Notes under the pieces: generated by a model | Databases searched by the model: none | What the model was told of the DNA's origin: nothing | Seen by the model: the letters and a program-made list of their open reading frames with translations, nothing else | In this document: positions 56,305 to 62,698 of the stretch, one piece after another | Position numbering within the stretch: the stretch's first letter is position 1 | Layout of the letters: each line of letters opens with the position of its first letter | Assembly (NCBI GenBank): GCA_020638455.1 | Contig: JACKIK010000003.1 | Span: forward strand, 504,154-568,153 | Direction of reading: 5' to 3' | DNA: 64,000 nt | Source of the DNA: Hyphomonas sp. | GTDB lineage: Bacteria > Pseudomonadota > Alphaproteobacteria > Caulobacterales > Hyphomonadaceae | Made by a program: the position numbers and the translations under genes

Positions 56305-57288
56305 TCAGGCGCTTGCCGCTTGCATAAGGGGCGCGTGCGCGGCGTTCAGGACTTCCAGCCCCGCCCCCGCGCGCGGTGCACGTTCGGAGAGCGTGCGGCG
56401 CCATTGCCGCGCGCCCGGCTGGCCATTGAACAGGCCGAGCATGTGGCGTGTCATCGCGTGCAACGGAACGCCTTCGGCCAGCCGCTCCGCGACATAGGGC
56501 CGGTAAGCCTCAAGCGCGGCGAAGGGGGAGACCGGCTCCCCTTCCCCGAACAGGACAGCATCGACCTCGCCGAGCAGGGCCGGGGTCTGATAGGCCGCAC
56601 GGCCCAGCATGACGCCATCGAATGTCGCCAGATGCTCCGTACACGCCTCGATCGTCTGGATACCGCCGTTCAGAACGACGGTCAGATCTGGCCGTGACGC
56701 CTTCAGCTCCGCCACCAGGCCATAATCTAACGGCGGCACGTCGCGGTTCTCCTTCGGCGACAGGCCCTTCAGCCACGCCTTGCGCGCATGCACCGTGAAC
56801 ACCAGGCACCCCGCTGCCGCCACCCTGTCCACGAAGGTGAACAATGTCTCGCGGGCCGGCAGGTCATCAATGGCGATGCGGCATTTCACGGTGACCGGGA
56901 TCTGCACCGCCGCGCCCATGGCCGCAACACAGTCCGCCACCAGATCCGGCTCCGCCATCAGGCAGGCCCCGAAAGACCCCGACTGCACCCGCGCCGACGG
57001 GCAACCGCAATTGAGATTCACTTCGTCATAGCCGAAGCCCTCCGCGATCCGCGCAGCTTCCGCGAGTTTTCCGGGCTCGCTGCCGCCGAGCTGCAGCACC
57101 ACCGGATGTTCCATGTCATTGAACCCGATCAGGCGCTCCCGATCCCCGTGGATCACGGCATCGGCCGTCACCATCTCGGTCCACAACAGCGCCCGCTTCG
57201 AGAGGCAACGATGGAAAGCCCGGCAATGCCGGTCCGTCCAGTCCATCATAGGGGCGACAGAAAATCTATAGTCTTGTTTTTTCGTCAT
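56305..57288 (-). CDS. dusA: tRNA-dihydrouridine(20/20a) synthase; 5' end probably supplied by the island
   Basis: FSVAPMMDWTDRHCR, QLGGS, NLNCGCPS..VQSGSFGACLM, VHARKAWLKGLSPKENR, GVMLGRAAY. Confidence 0.96.
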   Translation of the reverse strand: MTKKQDYRFSVAPMMDWTDRHCRAFHRCLSKRALLWTEMVTADAVIHGDRERLIGFNDMEHPVVLQLGGSEPGKLAEAARIAEGFGYDEVNLNCGCPSARVQSGSFGACLMAEPDLVADCVAAMGAAVQIPVTVKCRIAIDDLPARETLFTFVDRVAAAGCLVFTVHARKAWLKGLSPKENRDVPPLDYGLVAELKASRPDLTVVLNGGIQTIEACTEHLATFDGVMLGRAAYQTPALLGEVDAVLFGEGEPVSPFAALEAYRPYVAERLAEGVPLHAMTRHMLGLFNGQPGARQWRRTLSERAPRAGAGLEVLNAAHAPLMQAASA

Positions 57289-57319
57289 TTTTTTAGTAGT
57301 TTCAAGGGACTGAATCGAG

Positions 57320-57397
57320 AACGTGTGCAAGTCAAGTGCACGAATTTGCACACGTTTGTACCGCTTTTGATCTCTCTGTGCACACGGAGCGCACACG
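57320..57397. repeat. Inverted and direct GCACACG repeats, putative integrase arm-type sites
   Basis: AACGTGTGCAA (57320-57330) / TTGCACACGTT (57346-57356) perfect IR; further GCACACG at 57380 and 57391. Confidence 0.7.
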
Positions 57398-57399
57398 AA

Positions 57400-58461
57400 A
57401 TGTCGTCTTTCACGAAGCTTCCTTCCGGCAACTGGCGGGCTCAGGTCCGCCGCAAGGGGCGGTATGTCTCTCAGTCATTCCGGCGCCGCAAGGACGCCGA
57501 GGAATGGGCCCTCAAAATGGAGCGCCGGGTGGACCGCGGGGAGAGCGTCTCCGCGCGCCGCCCGGACGATATAAACACGATTGCTGACCTCGTCGATCTC
57601 CACATTGCCGACATGCTCGACATGCGCAAACGCCTCCGCCGGTCCAAAGCCTATTCGCTGAACAAGCTAAGAGACGACATCGGCCACCTGCGATTCAACC
57701 AGCTCGACCGCGAGCGCATTATCGAGTTCGCAAAGAGACGCCGTGACGAGGGCGCTGGCCCGGTCACCATCGCGATGGATGTCTCCTATTTGAAAACCAT
57801 CATGCTCCATGCCTCAGCCGTGCATGGCGTGCAGCTCGACATCGACCAGGTCAACCTCGCCCGCGTCGCCCTTTCCCGCCTGGGCATGATCGGCAAAGGC
57901 CGCGAGCGGAACCGTAGGCCGACACAGGAAGAGCTCGATCTGTTGATCGACTATTTCGAGGCCAATGATCGCCAGAAGTCGCCGATGGCCCGCATCGTCA
58001 AGTTTGCGGTCGCGACAGCCATGCGCCAGTCAGAGATCTGCTCGATCGAATGGTCCGATGTCGATGAGCGCAAGCACACTGTGCTCGTGAGGGACCGGAA
58101 AGATCCTCGCAACAAGGACGGCAACGACCAACGCGTGCCACTCGTCGACCTGACCGGCTACGATGCCTGGCAGCTCCTGCAGGAGCAGCGAACAAACCGC
58201 AAGTCCAAAGGCCGCATTTTCCCCTACAATTCCCGCTCGGTGGGAGCAGCCTTTCGCAGGGCCTGCCAGGAACTGGAGATTGAAGACCTGCACTTCCACG
58301 ATCTGCGCCACGAAGGCACAAGCCGCCTCTTCGAAGCTGGGCTGCAGATCGAGCAAGTCGCCCTAGTGACCGGCCACAAGGACTGGAAAATGCTGAAGCG
58401 CTACACTCACCTGAGTGCGGATATGATCGTGAACTTCGCGAGAATGAATCAAAGAGTGTGA
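57400..58461 (+). CDS. Tyrosine recombinase, dusA-associated integrase type
   Basis: N-terminal GNWRAQVRRKG arm-binding region; AMRQSEI, HFHDLRHEG.SRLFE.G, VTGHKDWKML.RY catalytic residues. Confidence 0.95.
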   Translation: MSSFTKLPSGNWRAQVRRKGRYVSQSFRRRKDAEEWALKMERRVDRGESVSARRPDDINTIADLVDLHIADMLDMRKRLRRSKAYSLNKLRDDIGHLRFNQLDRERIIEFAKRRRDEGAGPVTIAMDVSYLKTIMLHASAVHGVQLDIDQVNLARVALSRLGMIGKGRERNRRPTQEELDLLIDYFEANDRQKSPMARIVKFAVATAMRQSEICSIEWSDVDERKHTVLVRDRKDPRNKDGNDQRVPLVDLTGYDAWQLLQEQRTNRKSKGRIFPYNSRSVGAAFRRACQELEIEDLHFHDLRHEGTSRLFEAGLQIEQVALVTGHKDWKMLKRYTHLSADMIVNFARMNQRV

Positions 58462-58603
58462 ACGCCGAAGCTTGATGTGCGGCCTCAGCCAATCCGAATG
58501 TCCAACGGCAATACTCAGAATTGATGGAAGCTCCACTTCCCGTTCAACAGACCGGTGCAATCTAATCAATTGACCGATCGGCATTCCAAAAAGCCGGAAG
58601 GGG

Positions 58604-58632
58604 TTGACGATTGGATGAGATGCGTCTATTTC
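58604..58632 (+). promoter_or_regulatory. Putative sigma70 promoter of the cargo operon
   Basis: TTGACG, 17-bp spacer, TATTTC, about 30 bp before ATG 58662. Confidence 0.5.
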
Positions 58633-58661
58633 ACTTTTTATTCGTGAGAATGGTGAGCTTT

Positions 58662-59234
58662 ATGAAGATCGATATGAAAGCCCTTGGAAACGACACCGTG
58701 TTGGCCGGGGCCGTTACTGGCAAGGCAGTTTTCGTCAAAGTGATTGCGGAGACGGCGATCGAACCGACAGAGCCGACGGCGTTAATAATGGACTTCGACG
58801 ACGTCCAGATAGCGACTGCCAGCTTTCTTCGTGAAACCGTTTTCGCGGCTAAGACTTACATGCGGGCACGGCAATCTGCCTTTTATCCGGTGGTTGCCAA
58901 TCTGAACGCCGAGATTCGCGATGAACTCGCGGTGCTGACCGAGGCGCTGAATGACGCGATCATCTCGTGCGAGATTTCCTCCTCAGGAGTGCTTTCAAAC
59001 GTTCAACTCTTCGGCAAACTCGATCCGAAGCAGCAGATTACTTTCGACTACATCGTCGAAAATCGCGTCGCGGACGCGAACACGTTGAAAGAGCAGCTTG
59101 GCGATACTGACAAAGCCAAGAACACGAATGCCTGGAACAACAGACTTGCGAGTCTCGTCGCCCGCGGCGTGATCAAGGAGTTCTCACGCGGCCGAGCAAA
59201 ATTCTACAAGCCAATTCTCGATGAGGCGGTGTGA
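58662..59234 (+). CDS. STAS-like (DUF4325-type) domain fused to C-terminal winged HTH
   Basis: LIMDFDDVQIATASFLRE (STAS-like strand-loop-helix with Ser); NAWNNRLASLVARGVIKEFSRGRAKFY (wHTH-like). Confidence 0.65.
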   Translation: MKIDMKALGNDTVLAGAVTGKAVFVKVIAETAIEPTEPTALIMDFDDVQIATASFLRETVFAAKTYMRARQSAFYPVVANLNAEIRDELAVLTEALNDAIISCEISSSGVLSNVQLFGKLDPKQQITFDYIVENRVADANTLKEQLGDTDKAKNTNAWNNRLASLVARGVIKEFSRGRAKFYKPILDEAV

Positions 59235-59581
59235 TGGGTGCTGAGTTTCTGGATAAGCGGAACAAGGGTTACACAAAGCATATTGATCGCAAGCGCGCGG
59301 CGCTGGCAACTAGCGATTTGTTCACGCAAGAGCCGAACGATCAGCCTCGCCGCGTTATAGCCAAGATCAGGCGCGGCGCCAGCCTCGCTATAGGCGATAA
59401 ACTCATTATCGAGAAGAACGGCGCGGGTCTGATTGGATGCCAGGGTAACAGCGTGGTGGCCGAGATTGAGAACGCCTCCCCCACGATCTCTGACGCCGTT
59501 TCGAAATCGAGCGGCGTCGCCACCGGCACAGTCGAGAAGGTAAATGCAATTTCAGGAACGGCAGAGGTATCGATCAAATGA
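59231..59581 (+). CDS. Hypothetical protein (basic N-terminal helix + small beta domain)
   Basis: Overlaps both neighbours (GTGATG and ATGA junctions); no family recognised with confidence. Confidence 0.7.
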   Translation: MMGAEFLDKRNKGYTKHIDRKRAALATSDLFTQEPNDQPRRVIAKIRRGASLAIGDKLIIEKNGAGLIGCQGNSVVAEIENASPTISDAVSKSSGVATGTVEKVNAISGTAEVSIK

Positions 59582-60723
59582 GCCAGTTGCAGCCAGACCT
59601 GCGGAGCGACCGATTGATTGCGCGAAAACTGTCCGACAGCCCAGGAAGCTTTCCAATGGCGCTTGGTTGCCCGTCCTGCCGCCATTTCGATATCTGTGGC
59701 GGTCTCAGCATCGAGGAAGGCGTTCTCGATTGCCTCGCCTTCTGTTGCGGGAAACCGGAGTCCTGCTCGTTGGTTTGCCGGAAAAAGGCTGAATTGTTCG
59801 CACAACAAGTTCGTGAGATCGATGGCTTCGAATTCTGCAATGTCGCACGAACGCCAGCCATTGCGTTCAATTTCAACGACGATATTGTCCCTCTGATCTA
59901 CCATGGCAGCAGCCGGGCGACCGCGCTTTCACACGATGTCATGGCGCTACGCCTCCCTGACCTGATTGACTTCCGGACCAAATCACCTCGTTTCGAATCC
60001 AAGGCCGCGCTTTGCCAGGCGTTCCGCATCGACGAGGCGGCAACGCTCATTTTGACAGGCGTTGATCAGGATCACCGCATCGAGCCGTGGTGGGCACTTG
60101 GGGAAAAGCGCCTCGGCATCATTGAACGCCTACGCCAGATCGGCGTTGCACTGGTGACGGCACCCAATTTTAGCGTCTTTCTCGATCATCCCCGCACGGA
60201 TGACCTTCATGCGATGAAGCGGATTGCGCTGGTATTCGCCGAGTTCCAATTGGGCGGCATCGCCTGCGCGCTTCATGCCCATGGAAGGACGGAACGCGAC
60301 TTCAGCCGGTGGGCGTACTTCATTCACGAGCGGCCGGAGATTCAGATCCTGTCGTATGAATTCATCACTGGACCTGCCACGAAGACCCGACGCCAGTTTC
60401 ATCTCGAACAGCTGGCGATGATCGCGAAGATGGCTGACCGAGATCTGGACATTATCATCCGCGGCAAGCCCGATGTCATTCCATTTCTGAGGCAGCACTT
60501 TCGGCGAGTAATTTACATCGAATCCGGAACTTTCGTGAAAACCATCAATCGGCAGCGCGCAGAGCGGCTCGGAAACCGCGATCTCGCCTGGGCAACAATG
60601 CCGACTGATCCGGGCGCGCCCATCGATGCTTTGTTTCAACACAATGCGCGCGAGCGGATAGCCTATCTTCGCAACAGGTTCTACGCGGACCCCGAACCCG
60701 ACCCCGTGTCGAGAGCGGCGTGA
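59578..60723 (+). CDS. DUF4417-like protein with Cys-rich N-terminal metal-binding region
   Basis: Eight Cys between residues 31 and 67; D.RIE.WW and VTAPNFSVFLDHP...HAMKR resemble DUF4417 motifs. Confidence 0.62.
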   Translation: MSQLQPDLRSDRLIARKLSDSPGSFPMALGCPSCRHFDICGGLSIEEGVLDCLAFCCGKPESCSLVCRKKAELFAQQVREIDGFEFCNVARTPAIAFNFNDDIVPLIYHGSSRATALSHDVMALRLPDLIDFRTKSPRFESKAALCQAFRIDEAATLILTGVDQDHRIEPWWALGEKRLGIIERLRQIGVALVTAPNFSVFLDHPRTDDLHAMKRIALVFAEFQLGGIACALHAHGRTERDFSRWAYFIHERPEIQILSYEFITGPATKTRRQFHLEQLAMIAKMADRDLDIIIRGKPDVIPFLRQHFRRVIYIESGTFVKTINRQRAERLGNRDLAWATMPTDPGAPIDALFQHNARERIAYLRNRFYADPEPDPVSRAA

Positions 60724-61526
60724 GGTGCTTCATCGACGCGCTTACTTACGACATTGCGGACGATATTGCACTTGCGCTCGAAAGTGGCGCGGCTGCAATC
60801 GTCGATCTTCCCGAGTTCTATGTCTACGATGTGTCGCCGGCGTTGGAGCTGGTCCATTGCAGACCTGAGGTCGCATCATCGTTCAACGGGCCCCGCGGAT
60901 GGCTCGATATCCAGGCCGCAGAAGCGCTGCTCGTCGCCAGCATGGGCAATTTGAATGCCTTTGTCTCCACTGATGGTCGGCAAGGCATGATTTCTGTTGC
61001 GGAGATCAACCGAAACGCCACCGCATGGACCGATTTTGCTGTCAAGCTTAAGGCCGCCGCGGGAGAAGCTGGATTTTCCTCTGACCACGGCGGAAAGCTG
61101 CTTGCGGCAGTCAGAGAGTTCTCCAGCAACGTCATCGAGCACAGCGAGAAAATTGAAACCGGACAGGTGCTCTTCGCGGCGCAGCCGGGACGATTCGAGT
61201 TTGTGGTTCGCGATCGCGGTATTGGCGTGTTGGAGAGCCTGAGAAAGAATCCGAAATTCGCGAAACTGAATGATGCCGGTTCCGCGATTGAGCTTGCGCT
61301 TCAAGAAGGCGTTTCGCGCCACGTTGAAGAGCCAGGACATGGCTTTGGATTTCGGCCGGTTTTTGTCGGCCTCGCCAATGTCAGTGAATACATCCGGTTC
61401 CGCTCCGGCGATCATTGTCGGGAGTATTTTCAAAAGCCGGGCGGGTCAATTGACGCCCATACCAAGCAGTCGAGCCGGCTGAACGGCTTTTGTTGCACCG
61501 TCATCTGCACGCCAAACAGCGTTTAG
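60720..61526 (+). CDS. GHKL ATPase / RsbW-SpoIIAB-like Ser kinase
   Basis: N-box REFSSNVIEHS, G1 VRDRGIGV, ALQEGVSR, G2 GHGFG; no His-phosphoacceptor box; GTGA overlap. Confidence 0.78.
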   Translation: MRCFIDALTYDIADDIALALESGAAAIVDLPEFYVYDVSPALELVHCRPEVASSFNGPRGWLDIQAAEALLVASMGNLNAFVSTDGRQGMISVAEINRNATAWTDFAVKLKAAAGEAGFSSDHGGKLLAAVREFSSNVIEHSEKIETGQVLFAAQPGRFEFVVRDRGIGVLESLRKNPKFAKLNDAGSAIELALQEGVSRHVEEPGHGFGFRPVFVGLANVSEYIRFRSGDHCREYFQKPGGSIDAHTKQSSRLNGFCCTVICTPNSV

Positions 61527-61564
61527 AATTTGGCGTCACATTCAAAGAGAGGTGAATCGCAGGA

Positions 61565-62698
61565 ATGTTCATCGAACGAAAACTGAATAAGGCGACCGGC
61601 GCCGTCGAACTCTGGTACTGCGAATGGAAGAACGCATCAGGGAAAGACGCGCAAAAGGTTTGGGTCGAAAAAGTCTGTGATGAACAAGCGGCGAAGCAGG
61701 ACGCTGCAAAAGTCCGGACCGAGGCTGCGGCGATATGTTGGGCGTATGGACGAACGCTTGGAAACATCGCCGTAAACTCAACGGATATGCTGGGTCACTT
61801 TCCGGCCAAGAGCGGTGCTGACGCGGAGTTGCCGTGCGATTTCGTAGACGCCGGAAAGTTCCGCAATGGCCAACCGCGGGTCTGGTGTCGCACGCATCAG
61901 ACGCATTGGGGAACGAGGGCCGATTTTGCATCGAGGGAACAACTGAGTGTGATGCGGTGCGCAAATCACGGTCAGCGGATGAACTATGTCGTGTCACCTT
62001 ACTGTGTGAATGTCGATGAGCACGAAGAAGTTGGGGTCTGGTGTTCCATGCCGGCCGCGATCTCCACCGAAGAAATCGCCCCTCGACCTCCGAAAATCCA
62101 TGTGCATGTGCGGGAGAACGCCGGCGCCAAAAAGGTGATCGACAGGGACTTCCACGCCATTTCCATTCAATATGGATCAAGCATGGACCTGTTTGGTGCG
62201 AACGATATCAGCCTCGTGAACGTCACTCCGCCTGCGGCGTTTGATTTCGTCTGCGGGCTGGAACTTGAGAAAGACATGGACTGCATCAATTGCAGCCATT
62301 GCGGCTATCCGCATCTGGACCTAGGCGACTTCGCCCAGACGCCGCACCGAAAGCATTTCTGTGGGAATTGCGGTCGCGACAGCACTTGGAGCAAGAAGCC
62401 TATCGTCTCAACACCATTGAAGCCCTTGCATGACACTTTCGCGAAAACCCTGAAATACGTCACTCCGGACCGTTCGCTGAACCTCGACGACTATGCCGGC
62501 TGTTCCTACACAATTTGGGCCTCCACACCAGCGATTGTCTGGACCGCCGCTCGCGAACAGGAATTTGGAATTCATGTGCATATCCACAGCGGCACTCACA
62601 GGGTGGTCGACGATACCTTCGGCGAGGTGATACTCAACGGTAAAATATTGGATCGGTCTGAACTGGTCGCGTTGATGATGAAGCGGACGATTGTGTAA
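61565..62698 (+). CDS. Cys/His-rich hypothetical protein, probably zinc-binding
   Basis: 377-aa ORF with RBS; WCRTH, IHVH twice, CSHCGYPHLD...HRKHFCGNCG. Confidence 0.72.
   Translation: MFIERKLNKATGAVELWYCEWKNASGKDAQKVWVEKVCDEQAAKQDAAKVRTEAAAICWAYGRTLGNIAVNSTDMLGHFPAKSGADAELPCDFVDAGKFRNGQPRVWCRTHQTHWGTRADFASREQLSVMRCANHGQRMNYVVSPYCVNVDEHEEVGVWCSMPAAISTEEIAPRPPKIHVHVRENAGAKKVIDRDFHAISIQYGSSMDLFGANDISLVNVTPPAAFDFVCGLELEKDMDCINCSHCGYPHLDLGDFAQTPHRKHFCGNCGRDSTWSKKPIVSTPLKPLHDTFAKTLKYVTPDRSLNLDDYAGCSYTIWASTPAIVWTAAREQEFGIHVHIHSGTHRVVDDTFGEVILNGKILDRSELVALMMKRTIV

Follow-up and report, generated by a model that had tools for sequence, protein, structure and literature searches.

The closest described relatives of the locus reported here are the CapK/CapS regulatory pair, the VapKSC system and enzymes with the fold of tRNA-guanine transglycosylases (TGT); here and below, they are characterized from the parts of each source that were consulted. 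CapS is a dimer of STAS and winged helix-turn-helix (wHTH) domains that represses transcription via palindromes at the promoter, with a ‘wide palindrome’ overlapping the -10 site, and CapK, activated by single-stranded DNA (ssDNA), phosphorylates Ser54 of CapS, whereby the dimer is broken (Chambers et al., EMBO J 2026, PMC13373217). VapKSC protects against a phage, and its component VapS inhibits VapC via the STAS domain (PMC13373217). Among TGT-fold proteins, DpdA uses residues D95, D130, H181 and D256 (PMC10164549), and in type IV cyclic oligonucleotide-based antiphage signaling systems (CBASS) the N-terminal glycine of CdnD carries a deazaguanine that is bound in the TGT-fold protein Cap10 (bioRxiv 2025.04.06.647259). 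Here, a four-gene cassette is described that appears to combine a switch of the CapK/CapS type with a TGT-fold enzyme. It is located in a stretch of 64,000 nucleotides from Hyphomonas sp. (GenBank assembly GCA_020638455.1, contig JACKIK010000003.1, positions 504,154 to 568,153 of the forward strand), which is referred to as the window.

The four genes of the cassette are co-oriented and joined by start/stop overlaps (Table 1). They are predicted to encode a CapS-like repressor (gene 1), a small HIRAN-fold protein (gene 2), a TGT-fold enzyme related to DUF4417 proteins (gene 3) and a GHKL serine-kinase-like protein (gene 4). The cassette is proposed to represent a mobile, autoregulated, DNA-damage-inducible defence module whose enzyme would remove or exchange a nucleobase, and a probability of about 0.5 is assigned to this reading. 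It is likely that this inducible defence module has not been described before. A preliminary description of the window had suggested that the kinase switches the STAS-wHTH protein, with genes 2 and 3 as the output, and on sequence grounds this part is judged most likely right.

Table 1. Features of the four-gene cassette and its surroundings (coordinates refer to the window).
Feature	Position	Strand	Supporting observation
Gene 1, 190 aa, predicted repressor resembling CapS (STAS-wHTH), with S54 as predicted phospho-site	58662-59234	+	S54 invariant; profile alignment to CapS
Gene 2, 115 aa, conserved N-terminal arm and predicted HIRAN-fold barrel	59234-59581	+	model pLDDT 74, pTM 0.53
Gene 3, 381 aa, DUF4417-related predicted TGT-fold TIM barrel with N-terminal 8-Cys cluster, predicted output enzyme	59578-60723	+	model pLDDT 83.5
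Gene 4, 268 aa, GHKL serine-kinase-like protein, CapK/VapK-like without N-terminal helix-turn-helix	60720-61526	+	HATPase_c_2, E 4.9e-6
Promoter-like element, GTTGAC - 17 bp - CTATTT	58603-58631	+	TTGAC kept at this spacing in 49 aligned upstream regions
Predicted operator, palindrome TCAC-N9-GTGA	58631-58647	.	directly after the -10 box; 42/49 upstream regions
Gene 5, 377 aa, unrelated cargo	61565-62698	+	linked in 2/54 genome and 0/40 metagenome loci
Tyrosine integrase, island context, outside the cassette	57400-58461	+	PF00589, E 6.5e-27; adjoins a dus gene at its 5' end

Loci for comparison were chosen via gene 3 of the window subfamily, and comprised 59 genome loci and, out of 408 metagenome loci, the 80 best. 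Co-occurrence was counted at loci with at least 1.1 kb of upstream and 1 kb of downstream sequence, near-duplicates included. Genes 1 to 4 were all present at 49/54 genome and 44/45 metagenome loci, which bears out the expectation that they occur together in other genomes; the five incomplete genome loci represent broken or partial copies of gene 3. Homologues of gene 3 numbered 291 in a word-indexed search, and a cut-off of E<=0.001 yielded 1,165 cluster representatives; records of the cassette include Acidobacteria, Armatimonadota, Myxococcota, Bdellovibrionota, Bacillota and Planctomycetota. Strong matches were patchy, being found in 6/400 other genomes of the phylum and in 0/5 of the same family. 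The kinase gene was last and on the same strand at 51 of 57 genome loci and all 54 metagenome loci, convergent in three of the 57 genome loci plus five further loci, and located upstream in none (0/54 genome, 0/45 metagenome loci). Hardly any weight can be given to a chance cluster of cargo genes without a common function: linkage of the four genes over several phyla, together with a shared operator, excludes it for genes 1 to 4, and it holds for gene 5. Furthermore, gene 3 had no match among 50,697 phage records, and IMG/VR contained one gene 3 locus, with the full cassette; the cassette is therefore not a typical phage gene.

Upstream of gene 1, the window carries a -35 box GTTGAC at 58603-58608, followed by 17 bp and CTATTT. 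This element had been noted before as a sigma70-like promoter. The strict sigma-70 scan listed no site upstream of gene 1, so that the promoter is backed by conservation over 49 upstream regions (the window and the 48 GTDB loci at which the start of gene 1 was usable) and not by the consensus scan. These regions conserve TTGAC, approximately 17 bp and a TAT box running into the palindrome TCAY-N9-RTGA, which was present in 42/49 of them, compared with a mean of 0.81 (maximum 4) after shuffling and none in control stretches; palindromes with other spacings occurred in 0-6 of the 49. Counted over loci, the palindrome was found in 43/53 genome and 57/59 metagenome loci, and again in no control. 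The right half of the palindrome could at the same time serve for ribosome binding; this account is insufficient because it leaves the left half and the fixed spacing unexplained. A third TGA half-site, located 9 bases past the operator, was left out of the count because it coincides in part with the ribosome-binding site or the start codon. Based on these sequence features, the gene 1 protein is predicted to bind the TCAC-N9-GTGA palindrome. The preliminary description had considered a phosphorylation-gated module; the conserved operator points to transcriptional repression rather than to gating of the enzyme at the protein level.

The gene 1 protein features serine 54 invariantly in 49 sequences and a conserved C-terminal wHTH-like domain with invariant residues. 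Its profile aligns near end-to-end with the CapS structures 9Z71 and 9Z72, with S-F-x-R-E-S-V in register and S54 aligned with CapS S54 / S58A, the position of the phospho-acceptor on helix 2 of STAS, at E-values of 0.19 and 0.24, which are below significance. For gene 4, the N-box, G1 and G2 residues (E133, N137, H141, D165, G167, G169, G208 and G210) were invariant in 37 sequences, the match to HATPase_c_2 being just under the cut-off. No match to a His-phosphoacceptor or His-kinase dimerization domain was found in gene 4, and its profile matched RsbW (6m36) weakly (E 0.18). Of the two domain assignments made earlier, GHKL stands on its invariant motifs, and the STAS signal is weak (DUF4325, E 0.002-0.006, in 3/13 gene 1 homologues). 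Since approximately 100 residues precede the GHKL domain, gene 4 has no room for both a helix-turn-helix (HTH) and a STAS domain; conserved aromatic residues are located at positions 10, 61, 81 and 103. A sigma factor is missing from the operon because a pair of the CapK/CapS type would itself be a transcriptional switch.

A partner switch at the protein level, in which a toxic gene 3 protein is bound and inhibited by the product of gene 1 or gene 2 until phosphorylation frees it, would resemble VapKSC and is considered very unlikely. VapS does inhibit VapC via STAS, VapK lacks an HTH like gene 4 (PMC13373217), and an inhibitory peptide could be provided by the conserved N-terminal arm of the gene 2 protein; in contrast to VapS, however, gene 1 possesses a full wHTH, which contains invariant residues, and the operator that would match it is conserved. 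Such a switch is compatible with the proposed inducible defence module and does not exclude it.

The structural model of gene 3, built from 42 sequences, was compared with 48,161 chains. In VIA, the top match was QTRT2 (Z 15.1, rmsd 3.8, 266 residues aligned), followed by archaeal TGT (15.0), DpdA (14.4), bacterial TGT (13.9) and Cap10 (11.8), with unrelated barrels starting from 11.0. The top Foldseek match was archaeal TGT, and in a second structural look all 50 of the rows listed were TGT or DpdA. PDB sequence searches with genes 3 and 4 returned nothing useful. We take the catalytic residues of DpdA to be located on strands beta-3, 4, 5 and 8. Their equivalents in the modelled gene 3 protein would be G161, N197, H233 and E315, a register that rests on strand counting because the profile-profile comparison was not significant. 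Over 117 diverse sequences, these positions are occupied by G (91%), N (99%), H (99%) and D/E (85%), respectively, and D165, E169, W172, R206, R215, E261, T264 and R325 are further near-invariant residues, of which D165, E169, E261 and R325, like N197 and H233, are assigned to the pocket. Eight conserved cysteines are located at residues 31-67, and no conserved cysteine follows residue 67. In terms of the model, gene 3 may thus possess a conserved but rewired enzyme pocket, and because this pocket is altered, plain guanine is probably not what the enzyme acts on.

The preliminary description had called gene 3 DUF4417-like. This relationship is retained via plasmid relatives, which match PF14386 at E 2.8e-9 (over the cut-off) and 1.2e-5 and reach E-values of 8e-31 and 5e-30 with the profile of gene 3; moreover, databases label many gene 3 homologues as DUF4417. 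The link is transitive, since PF14386 itself matched neither the window protein nor its 41 close homologues; gene 3 therefore falls outside the Pfam model and is now placed as a TGT-fold barrel. The PF14386 profile had no matches in 401 genomes and 14 controls, a result that is uninformative. Distant gene 3 relatives occur on Streptomyces and Euzebya plasmids without genes 1, 2 and 4. Ten Streptomyces plasmid records carry relatives with the Cys-rich N-terminus; on one Streptomyces plasmid (L006:4262-6696), such a relative, with serine at beta-8, directly follows a ParB-like gene, an arrangement that resembles DpdB beside DpdA.

For gene 2, the open reading frame (ORF) and its overlap with gene 1 are as reported before, while its start, previously set at 59231, is most likely the ATG at 59234, since all 50 aligned homologues have M-G there. 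Gly2 is invariant in 50/50 aligned sequences and in all 66 metagenome copies that are complete, 10 partial ones being disregarded, within an N-terminus of the form G-x-D/E-F. In VIA, the gene 2 model matched 3k2y (Z 9.2), which we take to be a HIRAN domain, HLTF (Z 7.1) and Rad5 (Z 6.8), the next match having Z 4.7; Foldseek returned no match at E<=0.001. A HIRAN fold is therefore predicted for the barrel, in which R39, G54, G94 and A96 are the only conserved residues. When genes 2 and 3 were modelled as a complex, three runs gave 0.00, 0.63 and 0.02, which allow no verdict and were used neither way. As a separate observation, a C-terminal cysteine is present in most gene 2 homologues (e.g., L011:7645-7992), including 76/76 metagenome copies scored, and missing from the window and divergent copies; it might contribute a metal ligand.

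The invariant Gly2 raises the question of a conjugation reaction similar to type IV CBASS, in which the N-terminal glycine of gene 2 would carry or accept a nucleobase in the gene 3 pocket and gene 3 would attach gene 2 covalently to nucleic acid. This seems quite unlikely: the motif SGGxDS, which is characteristic of PP-loop/QueC-like proteins, was absent from the long frames of 139 loci in a motif scan, the G-x-D/E-F terminus is not the Gly-rich CBASS motif and, judged from the strand register, the two aspartates that read the deazaguanine would be missing from the pocket. The invariance of Gly2, the position of Cap10 among the top five folds for gene 3, and the deazaguanine on the N-terminal glycine of CdnD in Cap10 (bioRxiv 2025.04.06.647259) speak in its favor.

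In order to evaluate the neighborhood, 199 ORFs within 4.5 kb of the cassette were scanned at 52 genome loci; of the full set of 59, two had been removed as duplicates and five had no picked ORF. A PADLOC match at E<=1e-40 was found near the cassette at 25/52 loci, and the neighbors were Gabija (five loci), type I, II and IIG restriction-modification, bacteriophage exclusion (BREX), Hma-like, Kiwa, prokaryotic Argonaute, AbiE, BstA, Lamassu, SoFic and dCTP deaminase. Identical picking in 20 control regions of 9 kb from seven genomes (105 ORFs) yielded none, the best PADLOC match being 1.9e-26. The enrichment near defence genes for which a check had been suggested was thus obtained (25/52 loci vs. 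0/20 control regions). These neighbors show a defence-island location, not a defence function. The same switch could instead have no role in defence and help the host or the mobile element to repair or tolerate DNA damage, the HIRAN-fold protein recruiting a lesion glycosylase to ssDNA or forks. This alternative is regarded as unlikely, yet several observations agree with it: the fold matches of gene 2 include the fork-rescue proteins HLTF and Rad5, 27/52 loci have no strong PADLOC neighbor, and some CapK/CapS-controlled operons may be stress responses according to the authors (PMC13373217). It is opposed by the patchy mobile distribution, the frequent defence neighbors, the poorly conserved HIRAN barrel and several broken or partial copies, which suggest fast turnover.

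For the proposed defence module, the following course of events is envisaged. A dimer of gene 1 would, with high confidence, bind TCAC-N9-GTGA and block the promoter; with equally high confidence, gene 4 would phosphorylate S54 and break this dimer, as CapK does with CapS. By analogy, the trigger would fairly probably be ssDNA originating from damage or phage replication. Induction would feed forward because gene 4 lies inside the repressed operon at most loci. It is marginally favored that gene 3, on which gene 2 would dock via its conserved arm, then cleaves an N-glycosidic bond, so that a base, probably not plain guanine, is removed or exchanged in invader DNA or host nucleic acid. As a result, a phage or plasmid would be restricted, or the infected cell stalled.

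Several observations count against this scheme. Regarding the switch, the CapS matches of the gene 1 profile are interleaved with chance matches, the N-terminal approximately 100 residues of gene 4 have no Pfam match and no detected STAS domain, a counterpart of the ssDNA-binding aromatic residue W68 of CapK could not be mapped in gene 4, and no operator precedes gene 4 at the loci where it is on the opposite strand (0/3). Regarding the enzyme, the best structural match is QTRT2, a subunit without catalytic activity whose score is level with those of active ones, and hhalign of gene 3 with 26 bacterial TGTs and three DpdA sequences was not significant (probability 0.1-0.2%). By strand register, the general-acid Asp would be replaced by Gly161 and the guanine-reading Asp by Asn197, and the putative nucleophile position on beta-8 varies (D 74%, E 11%, S 7%, N 3%). 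HIRAN domains hold the 3'-OH end of ssDNA in a pocket with an N-x-Y-D-x-N-A loop; this loop is not visible in the gene 2 alignment, and 11 positions conserved to at least 90% are located in the first 36 residues of gene 2 vs. four in the barrel. Finally, four of the 25 defence-neighbor loci are based on candidate PDC models only, several of the 25 are related to one another, and the control regions represent chromosomal backbone, not mobile cargo.

Whereas the switch has a precedent from 2026 in CapK/CapS, the cargo pair under its control is uncharacterized. Tentatively, genes 2 and 3 may constitute a new class of immune effector, in which a damage-induced, TGT-derived enzyme with an 8-Cys metal domain removes from invading DNA a base that is modified or other than guanine, or tags nucleic acid covalently with the HIRAN-fold protein via its N-terminal glycine. 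If true, this would be the first function for the DUF4417 clan, and thus for relatives of a domain enriched in phage ParB fusions, and base exchange would join the attack chemistry of bacterial anti-phage systems; in bacterial conflict, the predicted rewiring of the pocket in an enzyme of TGT fold points to base chemistry of a new type. Furthermore, control of the CapK/CapS type would then include a layout that stands alone, feeds forward and has an operator of another sequence. Its small, self-contained format, the predicted operator and the named residues S54, N137, E315, H233, E261 and Gly2 make the cassette directly testable.

The cassette is part of a mobile island. Its row of overlapping genes, the 38-bp gap between gene 4 and a fifth ORF beginning at 61565, and its low GC content were all confirmed on re-measurement. 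GC amounts to 55.4% (58600-62698) vs. 65.3% (1-57000), and GC at third codon positions (GC3) to 0.63-0.67 in the cassette region vs. 0.78-0.86 in four host genes. The neighboring integrase, likewise reported before, was identified as a tyrosine integrase and is divergent from the Dus-family gene (PF01207); integrase-at-dus arrangements are known from dusA-associated islands (PMC4482086). Five same-family genomes gave no integrase match within 1.5 kb upstream of the dus gene. Genes for a VirD4-type coupling protein, a relaxase (DUF3363) and an S26 peptidase are located 3' of the cassette on the other strand, on account of which the element is likely an integrative conjugative element (ICE). Such an ICE-like element, headed by the dusA-associated integrase, was observed at window positions 56305-58461 and from G000:C3 to the contig end. 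Its far end could not be placed because no second copy of the dus 5' end (attR) was found in the assembly, which is itself incomplete.

Gene 5 had previously been noted as a fifth co-oriented gene. It was rejected as a cassette member, being linked at the two genome loci that represent the closest relatives and at none of the metagenome loci, and occurring in a genome without gene 3. Its family comprises 985 homologues of a constant length of approximately 377 aa that are Cys/His-rich, the best 120 at 63-92% identity. Gene 5 had no significant match in Pfam, NCBIfam, PHROGs or PADLOC, and its ESM Atlas matches were sub-threshold; it is a candidate stand-alone cargo or defence gene. In a close relative with 89% identity in gene 3 (L009:4823-13544), genes 1 to 5 are located elsewhere in a conjugative element, adjoining a Gabija pair. 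A Sphingomonas genome carries a second GHKL gene just 3' of the cassette (L058:10466-11488). On a Planctomyces plasmid (L005:4072-7113), the kinase gene comes first, followed by the STAS-wHTH gene, gene 2 and gene 3, which corresponds to the published capK-capS order and was seen at this locus only; this layout possibly links the two gene orders.

The preliminary description had recognized no named system. No PADLOC or NCBIfam model names the cassette, whereas the pair of STAS-wHTH and GHKL proteins is known as CapK/CapS. A PADLOC scan of the five window proteins returned nothing, and NCBIfam and PHROGs yielded kinase-domain matches for gene 4, a weak one for gene 1 and nothing else. In the literature consulted, a description of the cassette was not found, subscription journals and bioRxiv supplements, with possible lists of predicted systems, lying outside its scope. 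The consulted text of the CapK/CapS paper mentions no TGT, DUF4417 or transglycosylase (PMC13373217). Likewise, 12 of its supplements contain no DUF4417, transglycosylase or queuine, and ‘tgt’ as DNA letters only; 49 ‘unknown’ entries of Dataset EV2 and two other files might hide relatives.

Compared with TGT, QTRT1/2 and DpdA, the modelled TIM barrel of gene 3 is matched over approximately 255-265 residues at Z 14-15. By strand register, an acid at beta-8 in most members would be shared with TGT and DpdA, and a histidine at the end of beta-5 with DpdA, where His181 may be located there (PMC10164549). Gene 3 differs from TGT and DpdA in its approximately 10% identity without profile similarity, apparently in Gly and Asn at the two other Asp positions (strand register), and in an N-terminal 8-Cys cluster instead of the C-terminal CxCxxC zinc site. 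In contrast to the Dpd system, the cassette contains neither DpdB/DpdC nor restriction genes. With Cap10 it shares the reuse of the TGT fold, here predicted, in anti-phage defence beside a partner with a conserved N-terminal glycine; it has no CD-NTase and no QueC-like Cap9, and the Z of 11.8 for Cap10 is tied with unrelated barrels at 11.0 (bioRxiv 2025.04.06.647259). DUF4417 (PF14386) is often fused to ParB in phages (bioRxiv 2025.10.10.680097), whereas gene 3 lies outside the Pfam model and no ParB is encoded in the cassette. TGT genes in BREX-related systems represent a different arrangement (PMC12839542), and the known glycosylases acting on deazaguanine-modified phage DNA are not described as TGT or TIM-barrel proteins in the parts of the source consulted (bioRxiv 2025.10.29.685425).

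With VapKSC, the cassette shares a stand-alone operon, an HTH-less kinase and an effector of its own; VapS, however, has no wHTH and inhibits its toxin directly, and the effector is a PIN RNase, whereas gene 1 has a wHTH, gene 3 is predicted to have a TGT fold and no PIN gene is present in the cassette (PMC13373217). The likeness to CapK/CapS is closer. Gene 1 is also a STAS-wHTH protein (184-190 aa) with serine 54, gene 4 has the same N-box pattern E-x-x-x-N-x-x-x-H-S (by eye, from the Appendix), and both systems have a palindromic operator at the -10 box and are situated among immune genes (PMC13373217). Differences concern the operator, with TTAA half-sites 1 or 10 bp apart for CapS and TCAC/GTGA 9 bp apart for the cassette, and the cargo, which is variable for CapK/CapS (Bub, CBASS, Thoeris) and fixed here as predicted HIRAN-fold and TGT-fold proteins. 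Moreover, capK directly precedes capS in 443/443 published cases and the pair sits upstream of a separate operon, whereas the cassette has the repressor gene first, then the two cargo genes, and the kinase gene last or convergent. CapK is composed of HTH, STAS and GHKL domains, and gene 4, like VapK, has no N-terminal HTH (PMC13373217). As far as the sequences indicate, the cassette probably works like CapK/CapS, and it is counted as a variant rather than a member because its gene order and kinase architecture depart from those of the described pair.

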